IMG/VR virus record: IMGVR_UViG_3300021363_000001
Location: 13,622 to 77,621 of that record
DNA from: a virus
Lineage: Duplodnaviria > Heunggongvirae > Uroviricota > Caudoviricetes
Reading direction: 5' to 3' (one strand)
DNA: 64,000 nucleotides
Program-made: the position numbers and the translations under genes
In this document: positions 6,974-43,722 of the stretch, piece by piece
Layout: each line of letters begins with the position of its first letter
Position numbering within the stretch: position 1 is the first letter of the stretch
The notes under the pieces: generated by a model
Told to the model about the DNA's origin: nothing
The model's database searches: none
What the model saw: only the letters and a program-made list of their open reading frames with translations

Positions 6974-6977
6974 TTAA

Positions 6978-25740: not shown

Positions 25741-26021
25741 AAGAAGAAATCAATATCATCTGTAGGCGCGTAGTGGATTCGGTGCATGTTATTTCTGGGT
25801 CAATAAAACTTAAATGTAAGTATTGCGGGGAGCCTGTATACATGGCTCCTACTTCAGTTGATCTTGTTGCCAATAAAAATTATACCGTGCAATGCGATGT
25901 GTGTATTTTCGATGGAGACATTTTTGAAATAATTATTAAATCAGAACCTTTGACGCCTGAACAAATTAAAGAGCTGAAGAAGACGATTTTTCAAGACAAC
26001 ATGAAGGAAAGAAGGAATTAA
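25737..26021 (+). CDS. small zinc-ribbon protein
   Basis: CKYCGE...CDVC. Confidence 0.35.
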   Translation: MKEEINIICRRVVDSVHVISGSIKLKCKYCGEPVYMAPTSVDLVANKNYTVQCDVCIFDGDIFEIIIKSEPLTPEQIKELKKTIFQDNMKERRN

Positions 26022-27985
26022 ACTCTTATCTGCTCCCAAACTTCTTCTGTTCCGTTCGGCCCCATCTTCAGTCCCATCTTCACCCAGCGCATCTGCTGAC
26101 GCACGGTAGGCGCTACGGTGCGCTTCTCAAAATCACCCATTGTAAACAGGGCTGCTAAAAATGAATCGGCAAAGTCTTCATTGGCTTTGCCATAGTCAAT
26201 GAGTGAATCAATCAGTTCTAAAAAAGGAATATTTGCACAGTACTTACGCAAATACCGATTGGCTAGTAGTAGCTGCAGCTCCTTCACTCCATCATTACGA
26301 TAGAACCAAAATTCTGATTTACTGTCATCAGGATTTGTAACTCCAACAATTTTTGGTTTGCGCATCAACAAATTTTTGGCACCCCTGTTAATAAAGTATG
26401 AGATCACAGCCATGCCCTGGCCAACGTTGCGCTCTCCTCCTATTTTGAGCTTCCCAAACTTACCATACCACTTGCATAGCAAGAGAGTAATCATGTATGC
26501 ATCTTCCATCTTATTGGGACGAAACTTAAAGTATGCAACAGGAGTGAACTCGCAGTTGCTTCCTGAGTCAGCGCCTTTGATAACGGTCACAGAGACAGAC
26601 GATCCCTTTTCGGCTCCAGTTTCTTTATCGCTTCCGGCACCGTCAAAGCCAGCGAAGTACTGCACGTTAGCTTTTGGTTCTTCAAAGACGCATACAGCCA
26701 GCGGGTCATCTTTCTTTGCTGTGTATTCAATGTTGCCATGCATCTCATATAGGCGAACACGTTTGATCGGAAGATCACTATTGGTCAAAAGTTTTCTGCA
26801 TGCGCCAAGTAGTTCTCGCACGTCTGATTCGAATATATCTCCGGCAACAATATCAAATGCCTCTTCAACCGTATATGGGAATTGACGTTTGAGTTGGGAC
26901 AGTTTATCTTTTGATGCGCCAGCCCTGGCGTTGTCCAAAAATATTTTTGCCAACGGAACACCTTCTTCATTGACCATATCCATTCCGTATTCATCAATGA
27001 ATCCTTCATATCCCATCCATCCTGGATTGAAGTGACGGTATAATCCAGATTCAGTTCTTCCGTTTGCATCCTTCTTATTGAAATCACTTTGCTCCCATAG
27101 CGTCAAATATGCGCGGCCTCCTTTGAGCTTCATGTTTTCAAGAGTAGTGGGCAGAGACGCCTTTCCCCATATCTTACGTCCAAGTGAAATTTGCATTTTG
27201 TGGGTTTGCCACCACATTTGCAAATCCATGTCTTTGATGGAACCTGCTTCATCCAAATAAACAATATCCATTCTGCGTCCCTGGTATCCTGATTCGCTTG
27301 TCTCTTCAAAATCAATAAATGAATTCAACGCTTTCCTATTTCGTGTCTTGCCAAGTTTTTTACTACGAGTAGTGGGCTCAAAAAACATCAAAGCAGATTT
27401 CGGATCACGATTACCATCATACACTGGAAGAATTTCTTGTGGCATGTGACGGAACGAACGAACTATACGCTGAGTAAATAAATTGTCCTTAGCGTCTTTA
27501 GTACTTATGCTCTGAAGCCCTGCATGGAAATCTTCAGTCATGGATGTGTGATTATATATCCATGAAAGCCTCTTTTCAGTTTTTCCGTTTCTCTTCATCG
27601 TTAGATACATATCTCCATAACAGTTTGGATCATTCCAACAATAATCCATGAAGTAAAAATCTGAAAGGTCGGATTGGCGAAACTGCGGATACCCATCATC
27701 GGTATCAGCGGCGATGTACCACCACTGAAGATAAAACCAATGGTCACCGGTGAGGTAAATTTTTTTCCCGTTATTAAAAAACCATACACCAGTTCTTCTT
27801 TTACGAATATCTTCCTTTATATAATTTACTTGCTGTTGCTCGGTTAAAATGTCCCAGTTTTTTGGAAATGGAGTCCGGTGCCACATCTGCTGCTTCTGTG
27901 GCTTATCAAAAAAAAGACATTCATTGTCTGGTGGCTCTACAGGAAGCTCATACAGAATATCGTCAATGGCTATTTTCTTGTTCAT
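26018..27985 (-). CDS. terL: terminase large subunit
   Basis: Walker A-like KRNGKTE, Walker B VYLDEAG, C-terminal RNaseH-like nuclease segment FAGFDGAGSD; 655 aa. Confidence 0.75.
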   Translation of the reverse strand: MNKKIAIDDILYELPVEPPDNECLFFDKPQKQQMWHRTPFPKNWDILTEQQQVNYIKEDIRKRRTGVWFFNNGKKIYLTGDHWFYLQWWYIAADTDDGYPQFRQSDLSDFYFMDYCWNDPNCYGDMYLTMKRNGKTEKRLSWIYNHTSMTEDFHAGLQSISTKDAKDNLFTQRIVRSFRHMPQEILPVYDGNRDPKSALMFFEPTTRSKKLGKTRNRKALNSFIDFEETSESGYQGRRMDIVYLDEAGSIKDMDLQMWWQTHKMQISLGRKIWGKASLPTTLENMKLKGGRAYLTLWEQSDFNKKDANGRTESGLYRHFNPGWMGYEGFIDEYGMDMVNEEGVPLAKIFLDNARAGASKDKLSQLKRQFPYTVEEAFDIVAGDIFESDVRELLGACRKLLTNSDLPIKRVRLYEMHGNIEYTAKKDDPLAVCVFEEPKANVQYFAGFDGAGSDKETGAEKGSSVSVTVIKGADSGSNCEFTPVAYFKFRPNKMEDAYMITLLLCKWYGKFGKLKIGGERNVGQGMAVISYFINRGAKNLLMRKPKIVGVTNPDDSKSEFWFYRNDGVKELQLLLANRYLRKYCANIPFLELIDSLIDYGKANEDFADSFLAALFTMGDFEKRTVAPTVRQQMRWVKMGLKMGPNGTEEVWEQIRV

Positions 27986-29160: not shown

Positions 29161-29751
29161 ATGGCGCTAACGCTAAAATTTAGCATTTGCTCAACAGGCA
29201 ACTGCCAAACATTTCAGTTCACAGAAACCACCGGTACCTATGATGCAAGTACGAATCCTGGCGGATGGGGAGCGCCTAATGTAGACATCACTACGGCGCT
29301 CACTGCAATATTGACTATCGTGCAGCCGGACAATACTGTCACAATCATTCCAACTTCTGTACTGTATCCGACTCTTCCAAGTGATTCAAATACATCTGTC
29401 ACTATTACAAATGTGATGCTTGGCTTGAGTGCTGACGCGCCACTACTTCAAGGCAAATACACGATCACCTATGATGTGACAGGTGATGACGGAACTGTGT
29501 GGGCATACAGCGTGACCACTATCACAATGATTTTCTGTTCGGCTGAATGCTGTGTATTGACAATGGCAGGAGCTGTAAGAATATCAAGTGACTGTGATTG
29601 CAAAAACAAAACACTTCAAACATTCAATGAATCATTCGGTTGGCTACAGGCTCTGAAGGCTGCTACAGAATGTGGCAAGAGCAATAAAGCCCAAGATATT
29701 TTAGATCACTTAACACAAATCTGCGCAGGGACAAATTGTAACTGCGGATAA
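29161..29751 (+). CDS. Cys-rich tail-associated protein
   Basis: 196 aa; C-terminal cluster CSAECC...SDCDCKNK...ECG...CAGTNCNCG. Confidence 0.45.
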   Translation: MALTLKFSICSTGNCQTFQFTETTGTYDASTNPGGWGAPNVDITTALTAILTIVQPDNTVTIIPTSVLYPTLPSDSNTSVTITNVMLGLSADAPLLQGKYTITYDVTGDDGTVWAYSVTTITMIFCSAECCVLTMAGAVRISSDCDCKNKTLQTFNESFGWLQALKAATECGKSNKAQDILDHLTQICAGTNCNCG

Positions 29752-29762
29752 TAAAAAAATCA

Positions 29763-31772
29763 ATGAGCACAAATTGTTGTGATAATTGCGGAGCCATTAC
29801 AAGTACTCAAGGCCAAGATGGAGCCAGCGCATATATTTATATTGCCTATGCTGATGACGCCGCTGGAGCTGGATTCAGCAATAGCGATGTATCGAAAAGC
29901 TACATTGCTATAAAGAAAAGCACAACAGCTATTGCAAGTCCGGTTGCAAGCGACTTTGCCGGACTGTGGCATCTGTGGACTGGCTCAAATGGAACCAGTG
30001 GAATGATTGTCATTGGCGATATAGATGCTAGCGGCGATCCTGATTATCCTGCAGCCGTTCAATTTGCTTGTTATCGTATTATTAAATCAGGACGTGTTGG
30101 TGGCGCTGCGGTACTCACTCCAGGGAAAAGAGTTTTCGCGTACACCGATCCTACCACCGGATTTTTAAATGGATGTGATTTAATCATTGCCATAAATGCT
30201 TCTGCCGGCGGAGCCGAAGCTGTTGCTGGGCAGGATTGGTTTGTAATCAAGCAAACAGCTTTTGCTCCGGCTGCAGGAGAAGGAAGTTTTGTGCAAAATA
30301 TAAAACCATCAAGCACACTTGCTACGGTAACAGGCGATGAAAGTGTTGCTTTGGCCGGAACCTCTACTGTGTCCGGGAACAACTCAATGAGTAGTGGTAG
30401 CGGAAATAATATTTCCAGCGACAACTCAATGGCTGTTGGTGACAACAACACAATATCATCATCGGGGACATTTAATGCAGCAGTCGGATTTGGCAATACA
30501 ATCAACGCTGCAGCAACAGGCGCATATGCTTTCGGTTTAAGTAATACTGTTGGTTCTAATAGCTCAACTGCCGTTGGATTCAGCAACTCTGTTTCTAATA
30601 GCGTTGGCGCAGTAGCAGCAGGAAATGGAAATGTTATTTCAAGCACCGGTGTTTCAAATACTACACTTGGCGCACTGAATACAATTTCTGGAACAGCTGC
30701 GCAATCGGTTGCTCTTGGAAAATCAAATACGATAAATGGTGCCGTCATTGGAGCTGGGGCGCTTGGAAATGCCAACGCTGTAAGTGGTGGAGTGATTGCT
30801 AATTCAGCTATTGGATATGGCAACACAGTTTCTGGCAGCGGTGGCGGTAATGTTGGAGCCGGACAACAGAACACAATATCTGGAACGGCAAACGGTTCTT
30901 TTGCCGGTGGATACTTAAATACAATTACAGGCGATCAATCATTTGTTGGCGGATCAAACAACAGCTCAACTGGTACTACTAATTGTAACATCATAGGTTA
31001 TGATGGATCATCAACCGCTATTCACAGCTTACTAACTGGTCGTGGCGGCCTATCAACTATTGATGGGGGTCGTGTTCATTCATCGTCTTTTGCAAGCAAG
31101 AGCGGAAGATTTCAGGTAGAAGATTTTTCTCTTGCCGTTGTAACTGCCAATAATACACCAACGGTTTTGACTGGACGCGAAGATGGTGGCGGCACATTCA
31201 TTATGCCAGGAGAATGCATATGGTCATTCCAGGCTACGGTGACAGGAAGCGTGGCTGTGGCAACGCCTCCAAATATTGCCGGTGACATGATTGAATGGAG
31301 AGTCAAAGGAAGATGTGGCCGTTACACAGTTTTATTTCTAATCCTTGGCGGTATCGCTGGAACATTCGTCCCTGGTGAAACAGTTACTGGATCAATCTCG
31401 GCTGCTACAGCAACTGTTATTTCTGTAAACGGTACATCACTTTACATAAGTAATCCAACGGGAACATTTGGCGCTGCCGATGTAGTAACCGGAGGAACTT
31501 CTGGGGCTACAGGCAACTGGGCTTCTAATAATTTTTCAATCCAGTCATTAATGATTGGAGATTTATTATGGCTTGACGGAGGCACCGCTGCGCCCATCGG
31601 CTATACAACGATAGCTAACACTCCTAATTATGCCTCTGGTGGTGCCGTAGGTGGAACCACATTATCAATCGGTATGTCGGGTTCAACATTAAGATTTCTT
31701 GTTACCGGTCTTGTTGGAAACACAATTCGCTGGGGCGGTCACCTATTGATTTCTCAAACAATGCTTACTTAA
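29763..31772 (+). CDS. tail fiber-like protein with short Gly/Ser/Asn/Thr repeats
   Basis: N-terminal CCDNCG; central reiterated NT(I/V)SG / GxSNTxxG motifs (YadA-head/fiber-like). Confidence 0.55.
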   Translation: MSTNCCDNCGAITSTQGQDGASAYIYIAYADDAAGAGFSNSDVSKSYIAIKKSTTAIASPVASDFAGLWHLWTGSNGTSGMIVIGDIDASGDPDYPAAVQFACYRIIKSGRVGGAAVLTPGKRVFAYTDPTTGFLNGCDLIIAINASAGGAEAVAGQDWFVIKQTAFAPAAGEGSFVQNIKPSSTLATVTGDESVALAGTSTVSGNNSMSSGSGNNISSDNSMAVGDNNTISSSGTFNAAVGFGNTINAAATGAYAFGLSNTVGSNSSTAVGFSNSVSNSVGAVAAGNGNVISSTGVSNTTLGALNTISGTAAQSVALGKSNTINGAVIGAGALGNANAVSGGVIANSAIGYGNTVSGSGGGNVGAGQQNTISGTANGSFAGGYLNTITGDQSFVGGSNNSSTGTTNCNIIGYDGSSTAIHSLLTGRGGLSTIDGGRVHSSSFASKSGRFQVEDFSLAVVTANNTPTVLTGREDGGGTFIMPGECIWSFQATVTGSVAVATPPNIAGDMIEWRVKGRCGRYTVLFLILGGIAGTFVPGETVTGSISAATATVISVNGTSLYISNPTGTFGAADVVTGGTSGATGNWASNNFSIQSLMIGDLLWLDGGTAAPIGYTTIANTPNYASGGAVGGTTLSIGMSGSTLRFLVTGLVGNTIRWGGHLLISQTMLT

Positions 31773-32419
31773 TGTATACCAGAACCGATATAGAAAATTT
31801 ATATGTCCAGATTGGTTGCTGCGCAGCTGATAAGGCATACCAAATGGTACAGCAGTACAACGCTGGTACTGAGGTATGCGATTGTGAGCAAGCGAACTTG
31901 AGTTACCTGGTTAACATCCGTGAGTTTTTAAAATGCTACACGCCGGTTGGTGAAATCATAGATGAGGGCGCTCCGTCAATTTCAACGACTGTCTTTAATG
32001 ATGACACTGGCCCATACGATGCGATCAGTATCCTGAGCAGCTTTAGTTCATTAAACGTTTCGCTCGTTGGCGTATACGCTACCGTAGATGATGCTATCAG
32101 GGCGCTGGTAACACAAATTAATTTAGGTACATGGACTGCTGTGTCTTGGGTTGCGCCGGATGGCAGAATTGTTTTTCGTTTGACAAGCCCAGATGATGAC
32201 ACCTACTGTGGTTCCACATTTACAATTTCTATTCGCTTAACAGGAGGTTCCACTTTTACAACTGTAACAACAGGAACTCTAACTGGTGGCCAATGCCTTG
32301 TTGCTCCTGCTGATTTGTGTATGACGCAAAGCGCCATGGACACATGGTTGAATAATGTAATTGAAAACTTCAGAGAGATATGCAATGGATGTTGCGATGA
32401 CAATAACACTGATGCATGA
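31772..32419 (+). CDS. Cys-rich tail-associated protein
   Basis: 215 aa; GCCADKAYQ...CDCEQ...CNGCCDD. Confidence 0.45.
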   Translation: MYTRTDIENLYVQIGCCAADKAYQMVQQYNAGTEVCDCEQANLSYLVNIREFLKCYTPVGEIIDEGAPSISTTVFNDDTGPYDAISILSSFSSLNVSLVGVYATVDDAIRALVTQINLGTWTAVSWVAPDGRIVFRLTSPDDDTYCGSTFTISIRLTGGSTFTTVTTGTLTGGQCLVAPADLCMTQSAMDTWLNNVIENFREICNGCCDDNNTDA

Positions 32420-32456
32420 TAAAATTAAAATAGTAACACATTAATCACACACACAA

Positions 32457-35400
32457 ATGCCATTTGTTTCAACCTTATATTCCGAAGGCTTAAATACAAT
32501 TCCAATAGCAGCAGTCTCATTTGCTGAGCTGACTCCTATCATTGAAGACCTCAGAAGAATAAATAATGCCAGTGCTGGTGTGGGGCCGCAAGGCGCTCAA
32601 GGCTCACAAGGAGTGAATGGCGCACAGGGCGCACAGGGGAATCAGGGCACTCAAGGCACACAAGGCTCTGCCGGGACGCAAGGGAGCCAGGGGCCACAAG
32701 GCGTGAATGGAACACAAGGCTCTCAAGGTGGCGCTGGTGCGCAGGGCGCTACTGGCGCTCAAGGTTCGCAAGGATCGCAAGGCGTTCAGGGCTCTCAAGG
32801 CACACAAGGAACACAGGGAACACAAGGAGCGGCTGGAGCCCAAGGGCTACAGGGCCCACAAGGTGTTACAGGTGCTCAAGGTAATCAAGGATTGGCTGGA
32901 GCCCAAGGTACAACAGGTTCGCAAGGCTCACAGGGCGACCAAGGATCACAAGGAGATCAGGGATTTCAGGGCGTAACTGGCGCACAAGGCGCACAAGGCG
33001 CACAGGGTCTTCAGGGTAGCCAGGGGACAACCGGTGCGCAAGGGCCGCAGGGTCAGCAAGGAACTCAAGGAACTGCTGGCGCACAAGGCGCACAGGGTGC
33101 GCAAGGAATACAAGGCACTCAAGGCTTCCAGGGAACTACCGGAGCACAGGGTGCAACCGGCGCTCAAGGAAACCAGGGCACACAAGGTCAGGCCGGAGCG
33201 CAAGGCACACAAGGTTCAGCCGGAACACAAGGCGCTCAAGGCGTGCAGGGATCACAGGGCATTCAAGGTGCGCAAGGTCAGCAAGGCGTTCAAGGAACCG
33301 CTGGAGTTCAGGGTACACAGGGAACCCAAGGCAATCAAGGTTTCCAGGGCACTCAGGGTGGCAGTCTTCCAACCAGCGGCGTGCTTGCGGTACAAACAAT
33401 AACTACCGCTCCGCTTCCGGCAAACACTTATGCCAATGGAGTATTAGGTGTTGGCGCGACCTTAACTGGAAATACAAATGCGGCTCTTGGAGTGGTAGGT
33501 GGAATAACGCCATTGGTTGGAGACCGCATCTTAGTAAAAGATGAGGTTACGCCTTCACGCAATGGTATCTTTGATATGACTCAAGATGGAGACGGCGCAA
33601 CCGTTCCATATATCTTGACTCGTACTACTGACTACGATCAGGCTAATACAGAAGTTTTTCAAGGAACATATACAATCGCTTCTGATCCAGCTGCTACTTT
33701 ATATAATCAGTTCTGGTTGATGTATACGGCTGGCTCAATCACAATGGGAACTTCAAATCTGTTGTGGAGTTTTGCTGGCACTCCTGGCGCTCAAGGCTTC
33801 CAGGGTTTCCAGGGAAATCAAGGCGTGCAAGGAACTCAAGGAGTACAGGGCGCTGCTGGAGTTCAGGGGTCACAAGGATTGCAAGGATCGCAGGGATCGG
33901 CTGGAACGCAAGGTGCGCAGGGTGTTCAGGGCGCTCAAGGGTTACAGGGAAACCAAGGCGTACAGGGAACACAAGGAAATACTGGTGCTACTGGAGCGCA
34001 AGGAGCGCAGGGTTTCCAAGGCATACAGGGCAATCAAGGATTCCAGGGCCGTCAAGGATTTCAAGGCACCCAGGGTGTGCAAGGCGCACAAGGGCTACAA
34101 GGTTCGCAAGGCTCCACTGGAGCACAGGGCCCACAAGGGTTCCAGGGCAACCAGGGAAATCAAGGTGTGCAGGGGCAAAGGGGGGTGCAAGGTGCTCAAG
34201 GATTTCAGGGCCGTCAAGGATTTCAAGGTGTGCAGGGCGCTCAAGGATTGCAGGGAATTCAAGGAGCTACCGGCTTCCAGGGCAATCAAGGCGTGCAGGG
34301 TACTCAAGGGTTTCAGGGAATAACTGGAGCTACTGGAGCGCAAGGGACACAAGGCTTCCAGGGAACACAAGGTGTGGCTGGAGTTCAAGGTTCCCAGGGT
34401 GTTCAGGGTTCTCAGGGAAATCAGGGATTCCAAGGATCGCAAGGCGCAACCGGATCGCAAGGAACACAAGGCGCAACTGGTACTCAAGGTGTACAGGGAA
34501 GTCAAGGCGTGCAAGGAACCCAAGGCTCGCAGGGCACACAAGGAGTGACTGGCGCAACCGGCGCACAAGGGACTCAGGGCACACAAGGTGTGCAGGGAGC
34601 ACAAGGAGCACAAGGCGCAACAGGTTCTACTGGCGCACAAGGAACGCAGGGTACTCAAGGATTTCAGGGAACACAAGGATTTCAGGGAGTAGGTATGACT
34701 CCAATTAATATAACTGTTGCTGCAGCACAGGCGCTTGTAACAGGATCAACTGTGATTCCTGGAGGATGGTATAACGTCACTGACTCATCACAAGCGATTG
34801 ACCCAGGAGATAGAATTTTAGTTCAGGGAACCACCACAAGCACATTTGATCAAACCGCTGTTTACCTTGACAATGTTAATAGCCAGCGCAATGAAATCGT
34901 TTACATCCTTGATGATACGCCTACCGATTCTATCATCATGCGCAGAGATGATTACGCAAATGAAATCTGGGACATAAATAATACCAATACAATTTTCAAT
35001 TTTCCATGGGGAGACCAATCTTGCCATAGCAATATAATCCGCAACGGCATAAGCTGGGCTGGAGTAATTCAGTTCTTCAGCAATAATATTTTGACTGGAG
35101 AAAACATTGCAGTTTCATATGGCGGTGGTGTTGGCGTGCCTACGCTGAGCGACAACATCATGCTTCAGGGATCATCTGTCCAGCTTGCTCCCACCGCTAC
35201 ATTCACCTCAAACACCCTTAATGTAAATGCGCTTATTGTTTGTCAAGGGACAATATCTAATTGCATTTTTGGTGCGGGCGCTGTCATTGCTGACGGTGGC
35301 TTCATCCTCACGGGCTGTACATTCCCATCTGGATTCTCTCTAATTGCTACACAGAATTACACCAATGTAATCTTTGGTGTTGGTACATACACTGCGCTAC

Positions 35401-35702
35401 TTACACAAACAGGCGTTGGTGCGCCAGTTGATACTGTATTAGAAAACACACTGGGGGGAACCGTAGTGTGGGCTTATGTTGGGTCTGGCATTTATACAGC
35501 CACTCTTACAGGTGCCTTTACAGCAAACAAAACTGCTGTTTCAATATCTCAAACATCTTCAGCGCAAGGCACCGGATTTGTTGCTTATGCAGACTGGGTG
35601 AGTGCCAACGTGGTGAGTGTGGCTACTTATGATATAGCTGGCGCTGGCTCTGCTGATGATGTGCTCTTAAATAACTTATTCCAAATACAGGTTTACCCAT
35701 AA
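32457..35702 (+). CDS. collagen-like tail fiber protein (1081 aa)
   Basis: Two long tracts of uninterrupted G-X-Q triplets ([10 protein letters not shown]...) separated by a globular segment; C-terminal beta-rich domain. Confidence 0.75.
32560..34700 (+). repeat. nucleotide-level tandem GGN-NNN-CAR triplet repeats encoding collagen-like (G-X-Q)n
   Basis: Reiterated caaggnncncagggn units over about 0.8 kb and 0.9 kb tracts; a similar tract at 37670-37920 and 38270-38540 in the second fiber gene. Confidence 0.7.
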
Positions 35703-35712
35703 AAATAAAATC

Positions 35713-36087
35713 ATGAATTTAACCTTAGCGGACATATCCGCAATCGTAGAACAGTTTTCCGGCAAAACAATTCAGGGAATGCCAACCGCCGTAGTATTAA
35801 ATTTTACTTCGCTGCAATCTCTTGATGATGACCAAAACTCAACGCAAATTTATTTTGGGAATTTAAGCGGAGTGTTGTTCGATAATTCAGAAGTAACCTT
35901 CAGGCGCGTTACCACAGAGCCTTCTGCTCAGGACTTCCCTGCGTTTTCTTATATTGGATCGCAAGCCAATATAGATAATACCGTTTCTGTAAATATCAAT
36001 GACCTGATGTTTACCTATGTGATAGGTGTTGCAAACATCCCCAGCGATCAACTGACGTTCTCCGGATACAAATTTACTGTAGCGTAA
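35713..36087 (+). CDS. hypothetical protein
   Basis: ORF 124 aa between fiber gene and glycosyltransferase. Confidence 0.4.
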   Translation: MNLTLADISAIVEQFSGKTIQGMPTAVVLNFTSLQSLDDDQNSTQIYFGNLSGVLFDNSEVTFRRVTTEPSAQDFPAFSYIGSQANIDNTVSVNINDLMFTYVIGVANIPSDQLTFSGYKFTVA

Positions 36088-36090
36088 TAT

Positions 36091-37332
36091 ATGGTAAGCT
36101 ACTTTACGCCTTTTCACAAGTCAACGATAGAATTTATTCAGCGATGCTATGCTTCCTTGTTAGCACAAGATAATCCAGATTGGGAATGGGTAATCGTGCG
36201 TAACGGAGAAGGCATTGATACAGACCTTTCCTTTTTAGATGCTGATGTGCGGGTAAGATTTTTTTACCACAGCGGCAAAGGAAATATCGGTGGATTAAAA
36301 AAGTTCGCGGTTTCAAAATGCGTGTCAGAGATTATTGCTGAGCTGGATTATGATGATGCGCTCACTCCAAACTGTACAGATAAATTAATTGAAGCGTTCG
36401 CTACCGGTTGTGATTTTGCATATTCTGATTGTTACGAATGCAAAGCTGACGGCACAACCTTCGCGCCATACGGAGCATACTACGGCTGGAGATATAAGAC
36501 TGAAGAAGATGGTAAGATCGTTACCCTGGCTCACGATCCATCACCGGCATCGCTGAGTTACATATGGTATGCGCCTAACCACATTCGTGCGTGGAAGAAA
36601 GAATTTTATGACAAGATCGGTGGGCATGACAGTACTCTTGAAGTAGCCGATGATTTTGATATTTGCTGCCGAACTTATATTTTTGGCACAATGGTTCATA
36701 TCAATGAACCATTGTATTACTACTACCACACAGGAGATAACACTTCAGGTCAAACCGCCAGTGACAACCGCAACGCAAAAATCCAGGAACTTACCCATGC
36801 GCTTCATGATAAGTACATACAGGATATTTGCATCCGCTGGTGCAGACTTAACAATTACTCTGCTCTTGATCTTGGCGGCAGGTTTAATTGTCCTGAAGGC
36901 TTTACTTCTGTTGATCTTCACGATGCTGAAGTCGTTATGGACTTACAACAGCCGTGGGACAAATTTTCGGACAACAGCGTAGGGGTAATCCGCGCATCGC
37001 ATTTACTTGAACACCTAAGCGACACCATTCATTTCATGAATGAAGCATACCGGGTATTAGTACCTGGTGGCTTCTTGCTCATTGAAGTCCCAAGCACAAC
37101 GGGCTCTGGTGCGTTCAGCGACCCTACTCATGTGAAGTTTTTTAACAAGCGCTCATTTGAGTATTACACAAACCAAAGTATAAGTCAGTATATACAGCCG
37201 CAGTATCGTGGACGGTTCCAGAAGAATCGTATCAACGAATATTTTTGGAAAAACTCTGACGTGGCTGTGATCCAGTGTCACATGATTGCATTAAAAGATG
37301 GGTATCATCCTATCGGAGAAAAATTGATGTAA
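36091..37332 (+). CDS. bifunctional family-2 glycosyltransferase / class I SAM-dependent methyltransferase
   Basis: N-terminal GT-A fold motifs (VIVRNGEG, ELDYDDA DxD); C-terminal MTase motifs (LLEHLSD...YRVLVPGGFLLIEVP). Confidence 0.7.
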   Translation: MVSYFTPFHKSTIEFIQRCYASLLAQDNPDWEWVIVRNGEGIDTDLSFLDADVRVRFFYHSGKGNIGGLKKFAVSKCVSEIIAELDYDDALTPNCTDKLIEAFATGCDFAYSDCYECKADGTTFAPYGAYYGWRYKTEEDGKIVTLAHDPSPASLSYIWYAPNHIRAWKKEFYDKIGGHDSTLEVADDFDICCRTYIFGTMVHINEPLYYYYHTGDNTSGQTASDNRNAKIQELTHALHDKYIQDICIRWCRLNNYSALDLGGRFNCPEGFTSVDLHDAEVVMDLQQPWDKFSDNSVGVIRASHLLEHLSDTIHFMNEAYRVLVPGGFLLIEVPSTTGSGAFSDPTHVKFFNKRSFEYYTNQSISQYIQPQYRGRFQKNRINEYFWKNSDVAVIQCHMIALKDGYHPIGEKLM

Positions 37333-37336
37333 TGAA

Positions 37337-39565
37337 ATGGCCACACGCACTGAAAATTTTGTTACAACTGGGAGCCCAGACAAACAAGTATTTGCTATCT
37401 ATGGAATCAAGGCCATTGATGTAGATACTCACACTCAGTATACCCAAGTTGCAACTCCATATGGCTCGGTCTGGCACCAGAGTGGCGTGTTCGCTTATGC
37501 AGACATTACTTTTTTTGGTGGCATTCCAGGAGTAGAAGACAGTATCGTTGTTGATCCGCTCAATGGAAAAATTCATTTCTCAGGCGATGTACTTGCTCCA
37601 GGGAATAATTATTACTACGGAACAAATGGCGCAGGAGTAAAAGGATATTATGTTCTTAGTGCGGGGCCGCAAGGCCCACAGGGATTTCAGGGAACGCAGG
37701 GTAGTCAAGGGCCGCAAGGAGCGCAGGGCAATCAGGGAACTCAAGGCCCACAAGGTTTCCAAGGGACACAAGGCTCAACCGGTGCGCAAGGGGCTCAGGG
37801 AGATCAAGGATTTCAAGGTGATCAGGGGTTTCAAGGAACAACTGGAGCACAAGGCCCACAGGGCGATCAAGGTGTTTCTGGCTCAACCGGGGCTCAGGGC
37901 CCACAAGGAGATCAGGGAACCAGCGGTGGCTTTTCTGATCTGTATCAATTTGCAACAGCTTTTTCTTCTCCAGCGGCAGGATTTTTAACTTTTAATTCTG
38001 GAAGCGCTTCAACAGCAACATCTATATCAATAAATGATATTGATGGGTATGCGCAAAACGCATTAGGAATATGGTCTTCTGTGGTTGCCGGAGACGTGCT
38101 TACTTTTTTTGAAAACGGGTCGGCTGGAAATCATGATTATTTTTTAGTAACAGGAACCTCACACTCAGTAGACCATACCGACCTTGCCGTTACCTACATC
38201 ACTGGTACCACAGGAACACCACCATATGCACTCTTAACATATATTACTGTTAGCATCTCCAAGGCTGGCGCAACCGGTGCGCAAGGAGCCCAAGGGACAC
38301 AAGGAGTGACAGGGGCGCAGGGCACGCAAGGATTTCAAGGAACACAAGGCACCCAGGGTTCTGCTGGAGCCCAGGGAAATCAAGGATTTCAGGGTACCCA
38401 AGGCGTTCAGGGGTCAACAGGTTCTACTGGCTCTCAAGGTACGCAAGGCTTTCAGGGAACGACCGGAACCCAAGGTACGCAAGGAGTGCAAGGCACCACT
38501 GGAGCCCAGGGATCACAAGGAAATCAGGGATTTCAGGGCACATCTCAGGTAGCGATGGTCTACTCCAACACTTCTGCTAGTTCAGCAATTACAGCCAATG
38601 GAGTAGAAACAACTTTCACGCAGCCCTCTTATACAATACCAGCAAACTCACTTATCGCCGGAAGCGTTATAAGAATAAAAGTTTATGGAGTATATACTAC
38701 TTCTGGACTCGCCCCGACCATTAATATAAAAGTAAAGCTGGGGGGAACAACCTATCTGGCTACAGGAGTGATTACAGCAGTAACAGGTGTTACAAATGGA
38801 GGATGGTGGGGTGATGCACAATTTACTGTTTATACTTCCGGGGCGTCAGGTACAATAGACGCGCAAGCATACGGAGAATTTTCTACAGCGATTACCACTG
38901 GGCTTTCTGTAAATATTCCTAACACTGGGACGCAGACTATTGATACTACAGCGGCACAGGCGGTTACATTAACAGCCACATGGGGACAAGCATCATGTTC
39001 TATCTCAATAAGAACAGTAGAAATATTTATTGACAACCTTTCTAATGCCGCTACAGCAGGAACTTTTCTTCAAATAGCAAATAATTTATCTGACCTTAAT
39101 AACACCACAACTGCAAAAACAAATCTTGGAATTATTGTAAAAGCGATGACCTCTGACCAAGGCGGCATAACATCAACTTCATACGCCGATATAACAGGAT
39201 TCTCTTTTGCTATTGCCGCTAACGAAACATGGATTATTGACGCCAAATTCAGAATCACTACTTCTTCAACAAATGGAGCAAGACTATCACTTAATCTACC
39301 AACTGGATGTACCATGCTAGTTCAGGTGGATGGTAACGCATCATCAGCTACTAATTGGGCGCAACAGGAATCTCAAATAACTACTTCTGATGCTGATCCA
39401 GCTCAAATATGTACCGTCATCTGTACCGATGGACGGGGTTTGGTATGGGGCGTAATAACCAATGGCTCTACCGCAGGGACAGTTCAAATGAGAGTCCGAA
39501 CCCAAAATGCTGCCAACACTGTCGCTCTCAAAGGTGGCTCAACTATGCTTGCGCATAGAATATAA
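37337..39565 (+). CDS. collagen-like tail fiber protein (742 aa)
   Basis: Two tracts of G-X-Q/G-X-Y triplets ([13 protein letters not shown]...) flanking a globular domain; C-terminal beta-rich domain. Confidence 0.7.
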   Translation: MATRTENFVTTGSPDKQVFAIYGIKAIDVDTHTQYTQVATPYGSVWHQSGVFAYADITFFGGIPGVEDSIVVDPLNGKIHFSGDVLAPGNNYYYGTNGAGVKGYYVLSAGPQGPQGFQGTQGSQGPQGAQGNQGTQGPQGFQGTQGSTGAQGAQGDQGFQGDQGFQGTTGAQGPQGDQGVSGSTGAQGPQGDQGTSGGFSDLYQFATAFSSPAAGFLTFNSGSASTATSISINDIDGYAQNALGIWSSVVAGDVLTFFENGSAGNHDYFLVTGTSHSVDHTDLAVTYITGTTGTPPYALLTYITVSISKAGATGAQGAQGTQGVTGAQGTQGFQGTQGTQGSAGAQGNQGFQGTQGVQGSTGSTGSQGTQGFQGTTGTQGTQGVQGTTGAQGSQGNQGFQGTSQVAMVYSNTSASSAITANGVETTFTQPSYTIPANSLIAGSVIRIKVYGVYTTSGLAPTINIKVKLGGTTYLATGVITAVTGVTNGGWWGDAQFTVYTSGASGTIDAQAYGEFSTAITTGLSVNIPNTGTQTIDTTAAQAVTLTATWGQASCSISIRTVEIFIDNLSNAATAGTFLQIANNLSDLNNTTTAKTNLGIIVKAMTSDQGGITSTSYADITGFSFAIAANETWIIDAKFRITTSSTNGARLSLNLPTGCTMLVQVDGNASSATNWAQQESQITTSDADPAQICTVICTDGRGLVWGVITNGSTAGTVQMRVRTQNAANTVALKGGSTMLAHRI

Positions 39566-39583
39566 TAATAATTGACAACTTAA

Positions 39584-39913
39584 ATGGACAACATTGACAT
39601 CCAGGACGAGCCAAAAGGAAGAGTAAAGATTGGCGTAATCACCACTTATCGGTCACTCCTGTTAGCAGGGGTTGCCTTAATTGGCTACTTCCAGCATGAG
39701 CAAAGCCTGGAAAGCGAACAGGATCGCGCATCTAACGTTGAAATCCTATTTCGCATAAATAGTATTGAGACAAAGCTGTCGGATTACCAAAATGAAACCC
39801 GTGAAAAACTTCATGAAAATAAATTGGCATTAAACGTCCTGCAGCGAGACCTTAACGACACAAAAGAAAAATATCTCTGGAACAATCCAGCCTTCAGAAG
39901 TAATGTGCCTTAG
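39584..39913 (+). CDS. hypothetical small protein with TM segment and coiled coil
   Basis: ORF 109 aa. Confidence 0.35.
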   Translation: MDNIDIQDEPKGRVKIGVITTYRSLLLAGVALIGYFQHEQSLESEQDRASNVEILFRINSIETKLSDYQNETREKLHENKLALNVLQRDLNDTKEKYLWNNPAFRSNVP

Positions 39914-40035
39914 AGTTGAAATACCAATCATCGGGAAATACTTATTTGTCCTGGATGGAATTCTGGTGGCTATAGTAGTGGGCTGCATACTATATAAATA
40001 TTCTCAAAAACATAACCAATTAAAAAATAAAAAAA

Positions 40036-40326
40036 ATGAATGCATTAACAAGTTTCCTTCCTCCAACTGAAATATTATTGGCTCTGGCCCTGGGAGCGGT
40101 AGTGTTCTACATCTTTGAATATCTATCTAAACGTAAGCTGAGCGATTTCAAATTCGGCTTCTGGATAAAAGACAACTGGTACAAGATGTTAATCCTTGCA
40201 CCACTGTGTTTAATCATTGACGTAAAATATATTGATCCAGGTATCACCGAACAGTCAGCTTTCTGGATTGGCGTAGGTGTATCAGGAATCATTGATCGCG
40301 TGCAAGACCTGATCGTTAAAAAATAG
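40036..40326 (+). CDS. holin-like small membrane protein
   Basis: 96 aa with two to three predicted TM helices and charged C-terminus; located after tail fibers. Confidence 0.4.
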   Translation: MNALTSFLPPTEILLALALGAVVFYIFEYLSKRKLSDFKFGFWIKDNWYKMLILAPLCLIIDVKYIDPGITEQSAFWIGVGVSGIIDRVQDLIVKK

Positions 40327-40341
40327 AGTTTTGTTTGTTTC

Positions 40342-40827
40342 ATGTATGGTTTGGTGTCGCTGCGCGAAGAGGCGTGGCGGCACTTCTTTATCGCTATGAA
40401 AACAGTATTACTTCAACGCTGCTTATCTGATAGTAAGCAAACACTGGGAACGCTCACAACCGTATTCGGTGAAGAATTATTTGTGTGTAAGGTTTTGGAA
40501 TTGCCATGGAAATGGAATCAATCAAATGTAAGCTGCGTCCCCGCTGGCCCATATGAGTGTACATGGACAAGATCAAATCGTTTAAGCACTGCAGCCGGCC
40601 ATGACGTATTTACTTACGAATTACAGAATGTTCCGCAGCGTGCCGGCATTCGTATACACAGCGCAAATTTCTACTATTCCCTTCTCGGATGTTTGGCGCT
40701 TGGCGATGCTCACAAAGACATAAATGCTGATGGAGAACTTGATGTTATACATTCTGGAGCAACGGTAAAAAAATTCAATGAGCTGATGAGAGGAGAACTA
40801 TTCGTGCTTAATATCAGAACAGTATGA
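40342..40827 (+). CDS. putative cell-wall hydrolase / endolysin (uncertain)
   Basis: 161 aa soluble protein between holin-like and spanin-like ORFs; His/Asp-containing segment HSANF...GDAHKD...DVIHSG. Confidence 0.3.
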   Translation: MYGLVSLREEAWRHFFIAMKTVLLQRCLSDSKQTLGTLTTVFGEELFVCKVLELPWKWNQSNVSCVPAGPYECTWTRSNRLSTAAGHDVFTYELQNVPQRAGIRIHSANFYYSLLGCLALGDAHKDINADGELDVIHSGATVKKFNELMRGELFVLNIRTV

Positions 40828-40922
40828 AATTCAACGAAGAAAATATACTGAAGATAATTATTTTCATGATGGGTTTTATCACCGGGATGGCATTTGCATA
40901 CACCTCGCAATTCATTTACTAA

Positions 40923-41318
40923 ATGAATACTGCCGACAGAGTGCTTATGATATGCGGCTTCCTGCTTATTGCACTGGTGTTATTCAAGGGGCCAAAGCGT
41001 GATGATACCATGATCCGCATGCAGGGTGATTCTCTCAAGGCATATGCAGATTCATTCAATGTTGCAAAAAAAATTGTTGAGCTTGCAGATGAAAAACTAA
41101 AGAAGGACAGTATTCAACACGTCATTGATTCTGTTGCATCCCTGGTTGCAATGCAAAATTTTATCTTCAGCCTGAACAACCGTAAAGCAATAGTTCCCAA
41201 ACATGATAAAGCTCAGAGCGCTATTATGCAGCTTGATGCTGACAGTTCTATACGCAGAGTGTCAGCCCTTGCTCACGCCATTGATAGTTTACGACAGCGT
41301 ATTAGGAAGAATCAGTAA
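40923..41318 (+). CDS. membrane protein, spanin-like (N-terminal TM plus coiled coil)
   Basis: 131 aa; TM helix ICGFLLIALVLF then helical region. Confidence 0.3.
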   Translation: MNTADRVLMICGFLLIALVLFKGPKRDDTMIRMQGDSLKAYADSFNVAKKIVELADEKLKKDSIQHVIDSVASLVAMQNFIFSLNNRKAIVPKHDKAQSAIMQLDADSSIRRVSALAHAIDSLRQRIRKNQ

Positions 41319-41688
41319 AGTAATTCTTGACACTGACACCTTTGCCTGTACGCCAATGTCAGAGGTGCGTTCAATCAATGTACTTGGTGACGTGCTCATG
41401 GAATGTTCAGAGGACAATGATTCGTTATTCTCCCAGGTGAATAAAGCAAAGATCGCTCTGGATTTAAAGGTTCGTGAGCTGGATGGATGCTTTAAAACAA
41501 ATGACGACAACGAATTAAAGATCATGGGCCTGAGTAAGCAGCTCTCATCAAAGATCAATGAGTCCAGAATCTTTGAATCCCAGGTTGATCACTACCGGAT
41601 AAAACTCAAGAGCCTGCAGCTGGTTTTTGGCGTCTCCGTGGTGATCGCTGGAGGGGAACTATTATATATAGCATTTGGTAAACGGTAA
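41203..41688 (+). CDS. hypothetical protein overlapping previous ORF in alternate frame (possible second spanin component)
   Basis: 161 aa; N-terminal hydrophobic segment with Cys, C-terminal TM. Confidence 0.25.
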   Translation: MIKLRALLCSLMLTVLYAECQPLLTPLIVYDSVLGRISKVILDTDTFACTPMSEVRSINVLGDVLMECSEDNDSLFSQVNKAKIALDLKVRELDGCFKTNDDNELKIMGLSKQLSSKINESRIFESQVDHYRIKLKSLQLVFGVSVVIAGGELLYIAFGKR

Positions 41689-42459: not shown

Positions 42460-43722
42460 TTATTCCTTATGCGCCTTTTTCATCACCTCGTCAATGCGTG
42501 AATTCTGGAATCCGTCATTGATGTACAATTCCAGAGTACGTAAATCACTGTGCTGGGTGAGCATCATCAGATCATACCCTTGAACCCCATTCTCAATGGC
42601 ACGATTAATAAAAGTGTTACGTGCTGAGTGGTTGCTGATCTTCTTTTCAATCTTGGCGTACCTGGCCAGGCGCTCCAGGGCCTGATTCATCCATTTAGTG
42701 CAGTCCTTTATCAATCTTTCAAATGACCTGTCCGGGAATGTATGCATCGCAAAGTCAAGAAATGGAAACACGTAGGTGTCTTCTGAAACATTACGTCCAG
42801 AATAAATCTTGAGTATTTCACGGGGCTCCGCTGGCAGTGTGATCTTAATGAATTTCCCAGTCTTATGAGCCCATATGGAAATCTGTTTGTAGTCATGAAT
42901 ATTCCCCCATTTCAAAGTCAATAAGTCGCGCACCCGGTATCCGATAGTTGTAGCTGAAAACAACCATGCCCACTTTGCATGATACAGCCACCAGTCAACG
43001 TTTTCTGAGAGAATCGTGGCACGAATCTTCTGCACTTCAGCTTCATTCAATGGCTCCTTTTTGGCTGAACGCCCGGCAATGATTTTGTATTTGGTAAATG
43101 GATTCTGCTCATGACGGATCACCCCATCATTCACCGCTGAGATCACAATGGTACGGATCATTGACAGGTGAGAGGCAATCGTTTTCTGTGCATACTCTTC
43201 TTCTTTCATAAAAGCCTGTAATTTATCAAGCCACTGAGTGGTGACCTCCTCAAACATTACAGGACGGTTTTTGGTGAATCTTTGAATGTTATGCATTCGG
43301 GAAAGGAAGGATTCATAAGTGATGATTTTATCCTTCTTAAAAGCCTCCACGTACTGCGCCAGACGCTGAATCATATCAGGAGAAGTCTTGTCGTTAAGCG
43401 AGTCCATGATTTGTGGAATGCTGATTTGTGGATTCTTTCGCTCCATCTCATAAATTTTTTCAGAGATTTCTGACTTGAGTCGGTTGAGTTTCACATTCAA
43501 CGAAGGGAATGTTTTTTTTGCACAGCCCAACTTTTTGTCCCAGTCCTTTTCATTGATCTCATCCTGGGTCGAAAGGAAGCCGAACCTTTTTCCTTTTGTG
43601 ATACGCAATCTGATTGCGCGGTTGCCATTACTTTTTTGGTGATGGCTGAGGATTAATTTTAGTAGTGCCATAGGAGTAATTATTAATGAAAGTTTAATTG
43701 ATTTTGAGAGTAGGGTTAACAA
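42460..43722 (-). CDS. int: tyrosine integrase
   Basis: C-terminal catalytic segment with R...HSARNTFINRAIENG...LMMLTQHSDLRTLELY (H-x-x-R and catalytic Y); N-terminal SAM-like domain; 420 aa. Confidence 0.85.
   Translation of the reverse strand: MLTLLSKSIKLSLIITPMALLKLILSHHQKSNGNRAIRLRITKGKRFGFLSTQDEINEKDWDKKLGCAKKTFPSLNVKLNRLKSEISEKIYEMERKNPQISIPQIMDSLNDKTSPDMIQRLAQYVEAFKKDKIITYESFLSRMHNIQRFTKNRPVMFEEVTTQWLDKLQAFMKEEEYAQKTIASHLSMIRTIVISAVNDGVIRHEQNPFTKYKIIAGRSAKKEPLNEAEVQKIRATILSENVDWWLYHAKWAWLFSATTIGYRVRDLLTLKWGNIHDYKQISIWAHKTGKFIKITLPAEPREILKIYSGRNVSEDTYVFPFLDFAMHTFPDRSFERLIKDCTKWMNQALERLARYAKIEKKISNHSARNTFINRAIENGVQGYDLMMLTQHSDLRTLELYINDGFQNSRIDEVMKKAHKE

Follow-up and report, generated by a model that had tools for sequence, protein, structure and literature searches.

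The locus described here raises the question of which acceptor is served when an enzyme that joins a glycosyltransferase to a methyltransferase is encoded by a phage between two genes for collagen-like fibres. The window, i.e. the whole stretch of viral DNA analysed, is 64 kb long. An earlier note on this DNA had proposed that the enzyme glycosylates the phage fibres with methylated glycans or, alternatively, that it converts the serotype of the host. The features on which the argument depends are as follows.

29161..39913, + strand: eight-gene same-strand fibre module, holding the enzyme gene, both fibre genes and the 124-aa ORF
29763..31772: 669-aa ORF in the fibre module, with a match to a 'host range and adsorption protein' PHROG
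32457..35702, + strand: collagen-like fibre protein 1, 1081 aa, proposed substrate (Pfam Collagen E 8e-89; tail-fibre PHROGs; composition)
35713..36087, + strand: 124-aa ORF, soluble, without family match, between fibre 1 and the enzyme gene
36091..37332, + strand: GT2-methyltransferase fusion gene, 413 aa (ORF with ATG start; Pfam GT2 and Methyltransf_11; model pLDDT 94.2; conserved family)
36091..36771, + strand: GT-A fold glycosyltransferase domain, residues 1-227
36340..36357, + strand: DxD block E84-L-D86-Y-D88-D89, the GT2 nucleotide-sugar and metal site (invariance in alignments A1 and A2)
36772..36852, + strand: long linker helix between the two domains, residues 228-254 (DSSP on the model)
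36853..37329, + strand: class I SAM-methyltransferase domain, residues 255-413
37337..39565, + strand: collagen-like fibre protein 2, 742 aa, proposed substrate (Pfam Collagen E 3e-27; composition)

The fusion enzyme and its place in the fibre module

The earlier note placed the ORF exactly, and its assignment of a fusion between a GT2 domain and a class I SAM methyltransferase domain was borne out. The N-terminal half matched Pfam Glycos_transf_2 (PF00535) over residues 5-130 (E 3e-13, 50.4 bits against a cutoff of 23.3) and had a GT-A fold in the predicted model. Its DxD motif is E84-L-D86-Y-D88-D89-A90, in which E84, D86, D88 and D89 were invariant in family alignments of 30 and 44 sequences. 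The C-terminal half matched Methyltransf_11 (PF08241) above the curated threshold (31.0 bits against 21.2), with the match covering profile positions 47-95 only, and scored 25.3 bits with PF13489, under the cutoff of 27; its predicted model is a Rossmann-like seven-strand fold. Motif I of this domain is atypical, reading L-D260-L-G262-G263-R264 in place of E/D-x-G-x-G-x-G. In at least 90% of the members Arg takes the place of the third Gly, with the Asp and the other two Gly conserved; the homolog in cyanophage S-CRM01 has GGG. SAM binding is presumed, given this atypical motif I and the lack of a helix following strand 1 in the predicted model. The acidic residues of the strand 2 end (ribose binding) and of motif III, D275 and D284, are invariant, as are E307-H308-L309 and D344-P-T-H347.

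The structural neighbours of the enzyme are polysaccharide and teichoic-acid enzymes, and all the closest ones use sugar or polyol acceptors. Similarity to the A2 domain of the E. coli K4 chondroitin polymerase (PDB 2z86/2z87), a processive enzyme with two GT-A domains and without a methyltransferase, identifies fold and family but says nothing about the substrate. The best NCBIfam matches, TuaG, PglI and WcaA, were all far below threshold, so neither a donor nor an acceptor was assigned from them. No TM helix was detected in the 413-aa enzyme (maximum KD 1.05), including C-terminal TM helices of the GtrB type; GtrB-type proteins, in contrast, combine a GT2 domain with such helices and with adjacent gtrA/gtrC genes, none of which accompany the window enzyme.

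Genes of the fibre module are separated by -1 to 37 nt, with 3 and 4 nt on the two sides of the enzyme gene. The gene was indeed found between the 1081-aa and 742-aa collagen-like genes, as the earlier note had stated, but it does not directly abut fibre 1, as the 124-aa ORF intervenes. This small ORF was rejected as a conserved companion of the family: a non-homologous small ORF takes its position in two relatives (L002 and L003), in Actinomycetes the position between collagen gene and fusion gene is occupied by a separate TPR gene, and unrelated ORFs are found at other loci. The GXY segments of fibre 1 span residues 43-90, 94-300 and 441-743 (186 triplets) and contain 82% Gln at Y, 81 Ser/Thr and no Lys; those of fibre 2 span residues 110-196 and 311-403 (60 triplets), with 78% Gln at Y, 36 Ser/Thr and no Lys.

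Among the approximately 40 annotated ORFs of the window there was no further GT or sugar gene and no GtrA/GtrC-like gene (flippase or membrane transferase), and no base-modification partner of the 5mYOX/TET, C5-MTase or thymidylate-synthase type was found in the window. The phage, which has an integrase at 42460-43722 and is temperate, also carries a PurZ-like gene, so that it may modify its own DNA. A scan of 29-42.5 kb for sigma-70 promoters and intrinsic terminators gave counts equal to those of shuffled controls, so it is gene spacing that places the enzyme gene in an operon. The integrase type and crAss-like matches point to a Bacteroidota host, whose promoters would differ from those scanned for. 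A search of the region for near-identical DNA returned no match among 50,697 phage records, and the phage is thus absent from that collection.

Conservation of the fusion and linkage to G-x-Q collagen-like genes

At E<=1e-30 the fusion family comprised 377 clusters (50% identity), with at least 570 viral and at least 410 bacterial loci and more than 120 full-length relatives. The earlier note had regarded a separation of the two domains in related phages as evidence against its proposal; both domains were encoded by a single ORF at all 170 loci fetched, a sample biased toward full-length matches. Among the best 150 of the 377 representatives, nearly all gave a single uninterrupted match over both halves, and a minority were shorter proteins that aligned to a portion of the query. 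Longer variants of 660-878 aa contain extra regions that are unannotated.

Collagen-like genes were frequently located next to members of the family. In 70 dereplicated viral loci, a collagen-like ORF lay within 100 bp at 18 loci (0.68 expected) and within 1 kb at 26 (6.4 expected), and none of 20,000 permutations attained either count; the density of collagen-like ORFs was 13 per 10 kb at <100 bp versus about 0.2 beyond 1 kb. In an independent bacterial set from GTDB, 36 of 50 loci had a collagen-like ORF within 1 kb (6.6 expected, permutation maximum 15), all the linked ORFs were on the same strand as the enzyme gene, and 14 of 18 loci were linked after 70% dereplication. The linkage was found across deep clades, in both upstream and downstream arrangements, and included a crAss-like phage at 44% identity, prophages of Planctomycetaceae and Syntrophorhabdaceae, and a chromosomal locus of Micromonospora in which no phage genes were recognisable and which also carries HldE-like, GT9, GT2 and MTase genes. 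Recurrence of the fused architecture at hundreds of independent loci, and likewise that of the collagen neighbourhood, exceeds chance.

To characterise the linked proteins, we compared their repeats and their remaining sequences. The non-collagen parts fell into 36 unrelated clusters with no common domain, and inheritance of a single cassette was rejected on the basis of these unrelated partners and of both gene orders. Only the G-x-Q repeat type was held in common. The median fraction of Gln at Y was 0.69 in 86 linked ORFs versus 0.14 in 133 background viral collagen-like ORFs (Mann-Whitney p 9e-31), and Ser/Thr at X was 0.25 versus 0.07 (p 7e-6), with few Ser/Thr in some of the linked ORFs. 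The contrast in Gln was kept in low-, mid- and high-GC classes, and an artefact of GC content was rejected.

The linkage is not universal. One large clade, with about 27 of the 70 viral representatives, is not collagen-adjacent and lies in replication-type regions, beside ribonucleotide reductase and a GT1-type GT. None of 114 background collagen-bearing viral stretches carried the enzyme, which is therefore not a general requirement of collagen-like fibres. At 14 viral loci a second gene, GT2+DUF6445, adjoins the family member, and 2OG-Fe(II) oxygenase genes lie near two members (L067 and L009), with none in the window. The S-CRM01 homolog, gp90, is not fibre-adjacent; the S-CRM01 genome still has three G-x-Q collagen triple-helix tail-fibre genes (g13, g20 and g23), as fibre-enzyme pairing had predicted.

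Proposed function, precedents and competing explanations

Since phage and bacterial relatives by the hundred adjoin genes of this Gln-rich collagen-like type, the enzyme most likely decorates G-x-Q collagen-like fibres, which at this locus would be the two flanking proteins. On sequence grounds, all the computational tests support the proposal of the earlier note that it acts on phage fibres, and the link to the fibres is strengthened considerably by the linkage in both data sets, across deep clades and in either gene order, by the 36 unrelated partner clusters and by the Micromonospora locus. We consider it probable that the enzyme is a soluble, cytoplasmic, late protein that glycosylates Ser/Thr of the G-x-Q helices and then methylates the sugar. 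It would be produced along with the late fibre genes, and the G-x-Q segments would be modified post-translationally, before or during assembly. The N-terminal GT2 domain (GT-A, DxD, predicted to be metal-dependent and inverting) would draw a sugar from a host nucleotide-sugar and place it O-glycosidically onto Ser/Thr of the repeats (G-S/T-Q or G-x-T), and the C-terminal SAM methyltransferase would then methylate the attached sugar. The sequences establish what the two domains are, that their fusion is conserved, and that the gene is repeatedly and specifically paired with G-x-Q collagen-like genes; from these we infer the acceptor residue, the sugar, the methyl target and the benefit of modification, and likewise that the glycans would be methylated and the acceptor directly a protein. 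Possible benefits are stabilisation or shielding of the Pro-poor, uncharged triple helix, or altered adsorption or antigenicity.

The scheme has precedents elsewhere. SgtA of C. difficile, a GT-A/WcaA-type GT whose gene adjoins bclA3, transfers beta-O-GlcNAc onto Thr/Ser of collagen repeats in vitro (PMC7157674). By description it resembles the present case in that a GT2-like, metal-dependent GT gene is paired with a collagen-like gene, but it has a C-terminal TPR domain where the window enzyme has the methyltransferase, and its substrate is the GPT repeats of a bacterial spore protein (exosporium BclA3) rather than the G-x-Q repeats of a phage. In PBCV-1 A064R, the MTase domain methylates the terminal rhamnose placed by the protein's own GT domain (PMC9614988). 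Also by description, this is a virus-encoded protein with GT and class I SAM MTase domains that decorates a virion structural protein; unlike the window enzyme it belongs to a eukaryotic virus, has three domains (GT-GT-methyltransferase) of which D1 resembles the retaining GT34 fold, and extends N-glycans on a capsid protein, whereas collagen-like fibres are the proposed target here. Mimivirus L230, a bifunctional collagen lysyl hydroxylase and glucosyltransferase (PMC9614988), is likewise a viral bifunctional enzyme dedicated to the virus's own collagen-like proteins, but its GT25-like and 2OG oxygenase domains differ from those of the window enzyme and it works via hydroxylysine, whereas the window fibre repeats contain no Lys. 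The analogy with BclA and giant viruses drawn in the earlier note holds in part: the repeats here are G-x-Q, with little Pro, and not of the GPT or hydroxylysine type. In mycobacteriophage Corndog, the O-MTase gp35 and the GTs gp36-38 are encoded in the virion operon and were proposed to modify virion proteins (PMC4351075). The likeness lies in phage GT and O-MTase genes inside a virion structural operon; the Corndog genes are separate, not fused, lie beside portal, protease and capsid genes and not fibres, and have no described link to collagen-like repeats. Later work on mycobacteriophage glycosylation (Freeman et al. 2023) reportedly describes glycosylated virions.

Modification of the host surface (O-antigen, capsule or envelope glycan) would serve serotype conversion or superinfection exclusion, and the gene would lie by the fibre genes only as a consequence of frequent insertion of accessory genes into this region. 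GT2 enzymes typically make cell-surface glycans, the sub-threshold NCBIfam matches and the structural neighbours agree with such a role, JGI names relatives 'O-antigen biosynthesis protein', the phage is temperate, and published opinion on the fibre-region GTs of pelagimyophages favours O-chain modification (PMC7029224). However, the enzyme lacks a TM helix, neither a Gtr-type partner nor another sugar gene was found among the annotated ORFs of the window, and the gene, 3-4 nt from its neighbours, belongs to a late structural operon and not to a transcription unit of its own. The G-x-Q pairing, seen in two independent data sets, 36 unrelated fibre backgrounds and a bacterial locus whose genes include none recognisable as phage genes, would also be left unexplained, and we regard the serotype conversion raised in the earlier note as unlikely. 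The same linkage, least of all that in the bacterial locus, would not be explained by DNA hypermodification, in which the GT-A domain would glycosylate modified bases of phage DNA. GT-A phage DNA glycosyltransferases do exist, with TarP as the top PDB structural homolog, and are defined by clustering with 5mYOX/TET, C5-MTase and ThyS-type genes (bioRxiv 10.1101/2023.12.21.572611). The clade beside ribonucleotide reductase and the PurZ-like gene would fit such a role, but none of these partners was found in the window and the gene is in a fibre operon, which leaves this explanation highly improbable.

Two further explanations keep the target on the virion. The MTase, the GT or both could act on Gln of the repeats (e.g. 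forming N5-methyl-glutamine), or the methyl group could be placed on protein. Gln at Y is the most distinguishing feature of the linked repeats, Ser/Thr are few in some of them, and the family-specific invariants H308 and D344-P-T-H347 have no assigned role. Such chemistry nevertheless seems improbable: the NPPY-type motif that follows strand 4 in the Gln N5-methyltransferases PrmC and PrmB is absent from the MTase domain, Ser/Thr at X is also significantly enriched, and SgtA and A064R are precedents for Ser/Thr O-glycosylation and sugar O-methylation. Alternatively, the enzyme could act not on protein itself but on a glycan, which it would elongate and cap with a methylated sugar after another, possibly host, enzyme has begun it or after its assembly on a lipid carrier; the collagen-like protein or a different protein of the virion would finally bear this glycan. 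This would suit the sugar and polyol acceptors of all the closest structural neighbours, the adjacent GT2+DUF6445 genes at 14 viral loci, and the extra GT2, GT9 and ADP-heptose genes of the Micromonospora cluster, where the enzyme might extend a glycan and not start one on protein. Methylated terminal sugars are also classic chain caps, as with WsaE and WbdD. We give this explanation a low probability, as the window and close relatives have no other recognisable GT and a host initiating enzyme that acts on a phage-specific repeat has to be assumed.

Returning to direct decoration of the fibres, a broader form of it is that the family constitutes a previously unrecognised, widespread modification system for Pro-poor, uncharged G-x-Q collagen, in which Gln is perhaps recognised or N-methylated; we consider this rather doubtful. 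Such a system would parallel, in microbes, the hydroxylation and glycosylation of animal collagen, and would control how stable the fibres of phages and of bacterial surfaces are, how well they resist proteases or how they bind receptors.

Implications for phage fibre annotation

Annotation routinely treats GTs encoded close to phage fibre genes as modifiers of host O-antigen, and the family offers a specific, testable alternative. To our knowledge, glycosylation of tailed-phage virions has been demonstrated in very few cases; virion glycosylation affects immune recognition. If the proposed function is correct, hundreds of phages of several host phyla, together with Actinomycete chromosomes, may decorate their collagen-like fibres with an enzyme of their own, and this would account for the stabilisation or protection of triple helices that are poor in Pro and rich in Gln. 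Studies of host range and adsorption, and of the antigenicity of therapeutic phages, would gain a further variable, and the engineering of recombinant bacterial collagens would gain a compact enzyme with two activities. Cultured or sequenced carriers of the family include cyanophage S-CRM01 and strains of Micromonospora, Streptomyces and Frankia.

The enzyme gene and its fibre operon

The open reading frame reported earlier at 36091..37332 (+) was confirmed, with an ATG start and a product of 413 aa, and so was its DxD motif (E84-L-D86-Y-D88-D89-A90). Its reading as a GT2 glycosyltransferase fused to a methyltransferase (GT-MT) was upheld by Pfam matches to Glycos_transf_2 and Methyltransf_11, both above threshold, and separately by one glycosyltransferase and one methyltransferase family in PHROGs. 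The earlier note had placed the gene between two collagen-like genes of 1081 and 742 aa; both flanks matched Pfam Collagen, but an additional 124-aa ORF precedes the enzyme gene.

Features of the enzyme gene and its flanks
32457..35702 (+), collagen-like fibre 1, 1081 aa; Pfam Collagen E 8e-89, tail-fibre PHROGs match
35713..36087 (+), 124-aa ORF between fibre 1 and the enzyme gene, without a family match
36091..37332 (+), enzyme residues 5-130, Glycos_transf_2; Pfam E 3e-13, above threshold
36091..37332 (+), enzyme residues 281-331, Methyltransf_11; Pfam E 4e-7, above threshold, matching the C-terminal half of the profile only
37337..39565 (+), collagen-like fibre 2, 742 aa; Pfam Collagen E 3e-27, tail-fibre PHROGs match

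Eight genes from 29161 to 39913, all on the + strand, were spaced by -1 to 37 nt, and the enzyme gene lay 3 and 4 nt from its neighbours. A scan for consensus promoters and terminators performed no better than on shuffled sequence. Many long other-frame ORFs overlapped the collagen repeats on both strands (32604-34708 and 37580-37988), such as one of 314 aa at 33764-34708; the period-3 repeat creates these shadow ORFs, which are not genes, and the same effect masked the true collagen frame in high-GC loci. Downstream of the fibres, 39584-41688 (+) is probably a lysis region, with small ORFs, of which 40036-40326 looks membrane-spanning by sequence, and a DUF5675 protein (40342-40827, E 2e-21) that also occurs close to the enzyme gene in one relative (L003).

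An AlphaFold2 model built from a 44-sequence family alignment (pLDDT 94.2, pTM 0.91) comprised a GT-A domain (1-227), a long helix (228-254) and a Rossmann-type domain (255-413). Residues invariant in the family alignments included E84, D86, D88, D89, H164, R166, D187 and D188 in the glycosyltransferase half, and D260, D275, E307-H308-L309 and D344-P-T-H347 in the methyltransferase half; D284 was invariant among 30 sequences and absent from the invariant list of the 44. Motif I of the methyltransferase reads L-D-L-G-G-R instead of GxGxG, and the usual helix after strand 1 is missing, so SAM binding is likely, not certain. No hydrophobic segment was found in the 413-aa protein (maximum KD 1.05), which makes it a soluble, cytoplasmic enzyme.

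A fusion family paired with collagen-like genes

A word-indexed search returned 745 relatives; among the best 120, nearly all were ~400-440 aa, with a few longer or shorter, query coverage was at least 89%, and most carried both Pfam domains. When 1.84 billion cluster representatives were searched exhaustively, 377 matched at E<=1e-30, and nearly all of the best 150 aligned across both halves as a single stretch. The family occupied at least 570 loci in IMG/VR and 410 in GTDB (one genome per species), chiefly in Planctomycetota and Actinomycetes (Streptomyces, Micromonospora, Frankia, Kitasatospora), the remainder including some Chloroflexota and deltaproteobacterial lineages. The earlier note had held that separation of the two domains in related phages would count against its proposal; both lay in a single ORF in 170/170 fetched loci, a sample that favours full-length matches. 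Longer members (~660-878 aa; L086/L088 9992-12289, P0023, P0053, P0133, P0137, P0141, P0161, P0188, P0235) carry an extra region N- or C-terminal to the core, and the extra 360 aa of L086 had no Pfam match.

In all contexts inspected first (a syntenic relative of 80% identity, relatives of 56-66%, a crAss-like contig of 44% and another of 43%), an ORF with GXY repeats lay at most two genes away. Among 70 viral representatives dereplicated at 90% identity, the fetched flanks of 33 contained an ORF with 10 or more GXY triplets (scored as collagen-like), which was <100 bp away in 18 (0.68 expected under uniform placement) and within 1 kb in 26 (6.4 expected); neither count was attained in 20,000 permutations. 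The density of such ORFs was 13 per 10 kb at <100 bp versus ~0.2 past 1 kb. In bacterial genomes, 36/50 had one within 1 kb, always on the same strand (6.6 expected, permutation maximum 15), as did 14/18 after dereplication at 70%. Collagen adjacency was spread across many deep clades of a neighbour-joining tree, in both gene orders, and the linked proteins, once repeat-masked (n=88), sorted into 36 mutually unrelated clusters, of which 25 were singletons. The enzyme gene tracks the collagen repeat rather than any one fibre family or phage tails in general.

We compared 86 linked collagen-like ORFs with 133 background ORFs, picked by a 12x GGN-NNN-NNN pattern from 114 arbitrary IMG/VR stretches, none of which encoded the enzyme. 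Median Gln at position Y was 0.69 in linked ORFs (minimum 0.32) versus 0.14 in the background (Mann-Whitney p 9e-31), a difference that persisted across low-, mid- and high-GC classes. Linked repeats also had more Ser/Thr at position X (0.25 versus 0.07, p 7e-6), fewer charged residues (4.5% versus 15%) and less Pro (8% versus 15%). The window fibres are of this G-x-Q type, with Gln at 82% (fibre 1) and 78% (fibre 2) of Y positions; the repeats of each lack Lys and include six Pro, and their Ser/Thr number 81 and 36, respectively.

One large clade (~27 viral representatives; IMG/VR loci L016, L020, L029, L033, L038, L045, L050, L062 and others) was never collagen-adjacent. Here the GT-MT gene immediately precedes ribonucleotide reductase (NrdA/NrdB), a GT1-type glycosyltransferase lies two genes upstream of it, and the target could be different. 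A GT2+DUF6445 protein recurred family-wide as a neighbour, at 14 loci that include 5 from this clade. The sole isolated phage with a full-length homolog was cyanophage S-CRM01 (gp90, 39% identity), in which the gene sits among early genes near psbA. A collagen target predicts collagen-like genes in that genome, and g13, g20 and g23 of its tail-fibre module, annotated as collagen triple-helix proteins, are all of G-x-Q type; the prediction held, but as a weak test, because it concerns a single genome and cyanomyophages commonly carry collagen-like fibres.

Proposed function and alternatives

These results demonstrate a soluble GT2-methyltransferase fusion, encoded in a fibre operon and specifically and repeatedly paired with G-x-Q collagen-like genes. 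That the collagen-like proteins are its functional target is, in our judgement, quite probable. The glycosyltransferase domain would take a sugar from a host nucleotide-sugar, since no sugar-synthesis gene is present (Pfam found no further glycosyltransferase or sugar-nucleotide genes among ~40 window ORFs scanned), and would O-glycosylate Ser/Thr of the repeats, and the methyltransferase domain would methylate the added sugar. This full chemistry is put forward tentatively, and the explanation overall is held with moderate confidence. Three precedents make the mechanism reasonable: in vitro, C. difficile SgtA, a GT-A/WcaA-type enzyme encoded beside bclA3, attaches beta-O-GlcNAc to Thr and Ser residues in the collagen repeats (PMC7157674); PBCV-1 A064R joins a glycosyltransferase domain, which transfers rhamnose onto the capsid glycan, to a methyltransferase domain that methylates this rhamnose at O-2 (PMC9614988); and Corndog-type mycobacteriophages carry O-methyltransferase and glycosyltransferase genes within the virion operon (PMC4351075). 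A route like that of Mimivirus L230, which acts via hydroxylysine, was excluded for the window fibres because their repeats are devoid of Lys.

Serotype conversion of the host, the earlier note's alternative, would accord with the generic GT2 annotation and with published opinion on fibre-region glycosyltransferases (PMC7029224), but it is disfavoured, as the defining transmembrane helices are absent, no Gtr partners were found among the annotated window ORFs, and the collagen specificity would be left unexplained. DNA glycosylation, known from other phage GT-A enzymes, is a further rival, whose partner genes were not found among the window ORFs scanned. The striking Gln signal suggests a chemistry directed at Gln, although none of the recognised Gln-methyltransferase motifs occurs in the protein. 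It is also plausible that the enzyme extends a glycan rather than initiates it, given the structural neighbours of its glycosyltransferase half (the closest match is followed by WrtF, RmlT, SpsA, GalT1, TarP and TarS) and the additional glycosyltransferases in a sampled Micromonospora cluster.

Glycosylation of structural proteins by viral enzymes and a glycosyltransferase dedicated to an adjoining collagen-like protein are known kinds; the fused family and its G-x-Q specificity, spanning phages and bacteria, are a new form of these. Full-text literature searches on collagen-like proteins, glycosylation and phage tails yielded no description of the pairing, and the papers retrieved credited phage glycosyltransferases with DNA or host-surface modification.

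The phage and related loci

The window is from a phage or prophage, encodes large virion proteins, and had no near-identical DNA in 50,697 phage records.

Other features of the window
2071-3231 (-), PurZ-like adenylosuccinate-synthetase homolog; phrog_1211 E 1e-56, Pfam Adenylsucc_synt E 4e-43
3194-3817 (-), GIY-YIG nuclease gene, adjoining the PurZ-like gene
6314-7721 (+), crAss-type tail ring proteins 1 and 2; weak, sub-threshold matches
12298-13367 (+), HNH endonuclease (PF13392 E 1e-7) preceded by a 173-aa ORF, both within the structural module
22543-24828 (-), portal
26018-27985 (-), terminase
42460-43722 (-), tyrosine integrase, Bacteroidota-style, with Arm-DNA-bind_5 and SAM_5 (Phage_int_SAM_5) domains

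The phage may be temperate and distantly crAss-like, with a Bacteroidota host, and may replace adenine by 2-aminoadenine (Z-genome). The 173-aa ORF directly preceding the HNH endonuclease had a weak, sub-threshold sulfotransferase-like match (E 2e-4).

The Micromonospora locus (L152 1-11248) lies on the chromosome of Micromonospora sp. CA-269861, with housekeeping genes on its flanks and no recognisable phage genes. Its order (HldE-like kinase/adenylyltransferase, GT2, GT9 heptosyltransferase, Methyltransf_25, collagen-like, TPR, GT-MT) suggests a heptose-containing collagen-like surface glycoprotein. The TPR protein is ~206 aa with a lipoprotein-like N-terminus; a homologous intervening ORF of ~207 aa occurred in 12 Actinomycete loci, mostly of Micromonospora and relatives plus two Streptomyces, the TPR assignment coming from a scan of the L152 copy only.

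Loci in Planctomycetaceae and Syntrophorhabdaceae were prophages, with tail tube and Phage-tail_3 matches. The collagen-like and GT-MT gene pair is present three or more times in a single Planctomycetaceae MAG (JBGATC01), on contigs L097, L098 and L099; L097 is evidently a prophage, having a tail tube protein encoded upstream and, downstream, a defence-type gene (DUF499/HEPN). Near two other pairs, 2OG-Fe(II) oxygenase genes (PF13640, prolyl/lysyl-hydroxylase superfamily; L067 11236-11844 and L009 13487-15658, the latter fused to a weakly O-fucosyltransferase-like region) may encode additional collagen-modifying enzymes.
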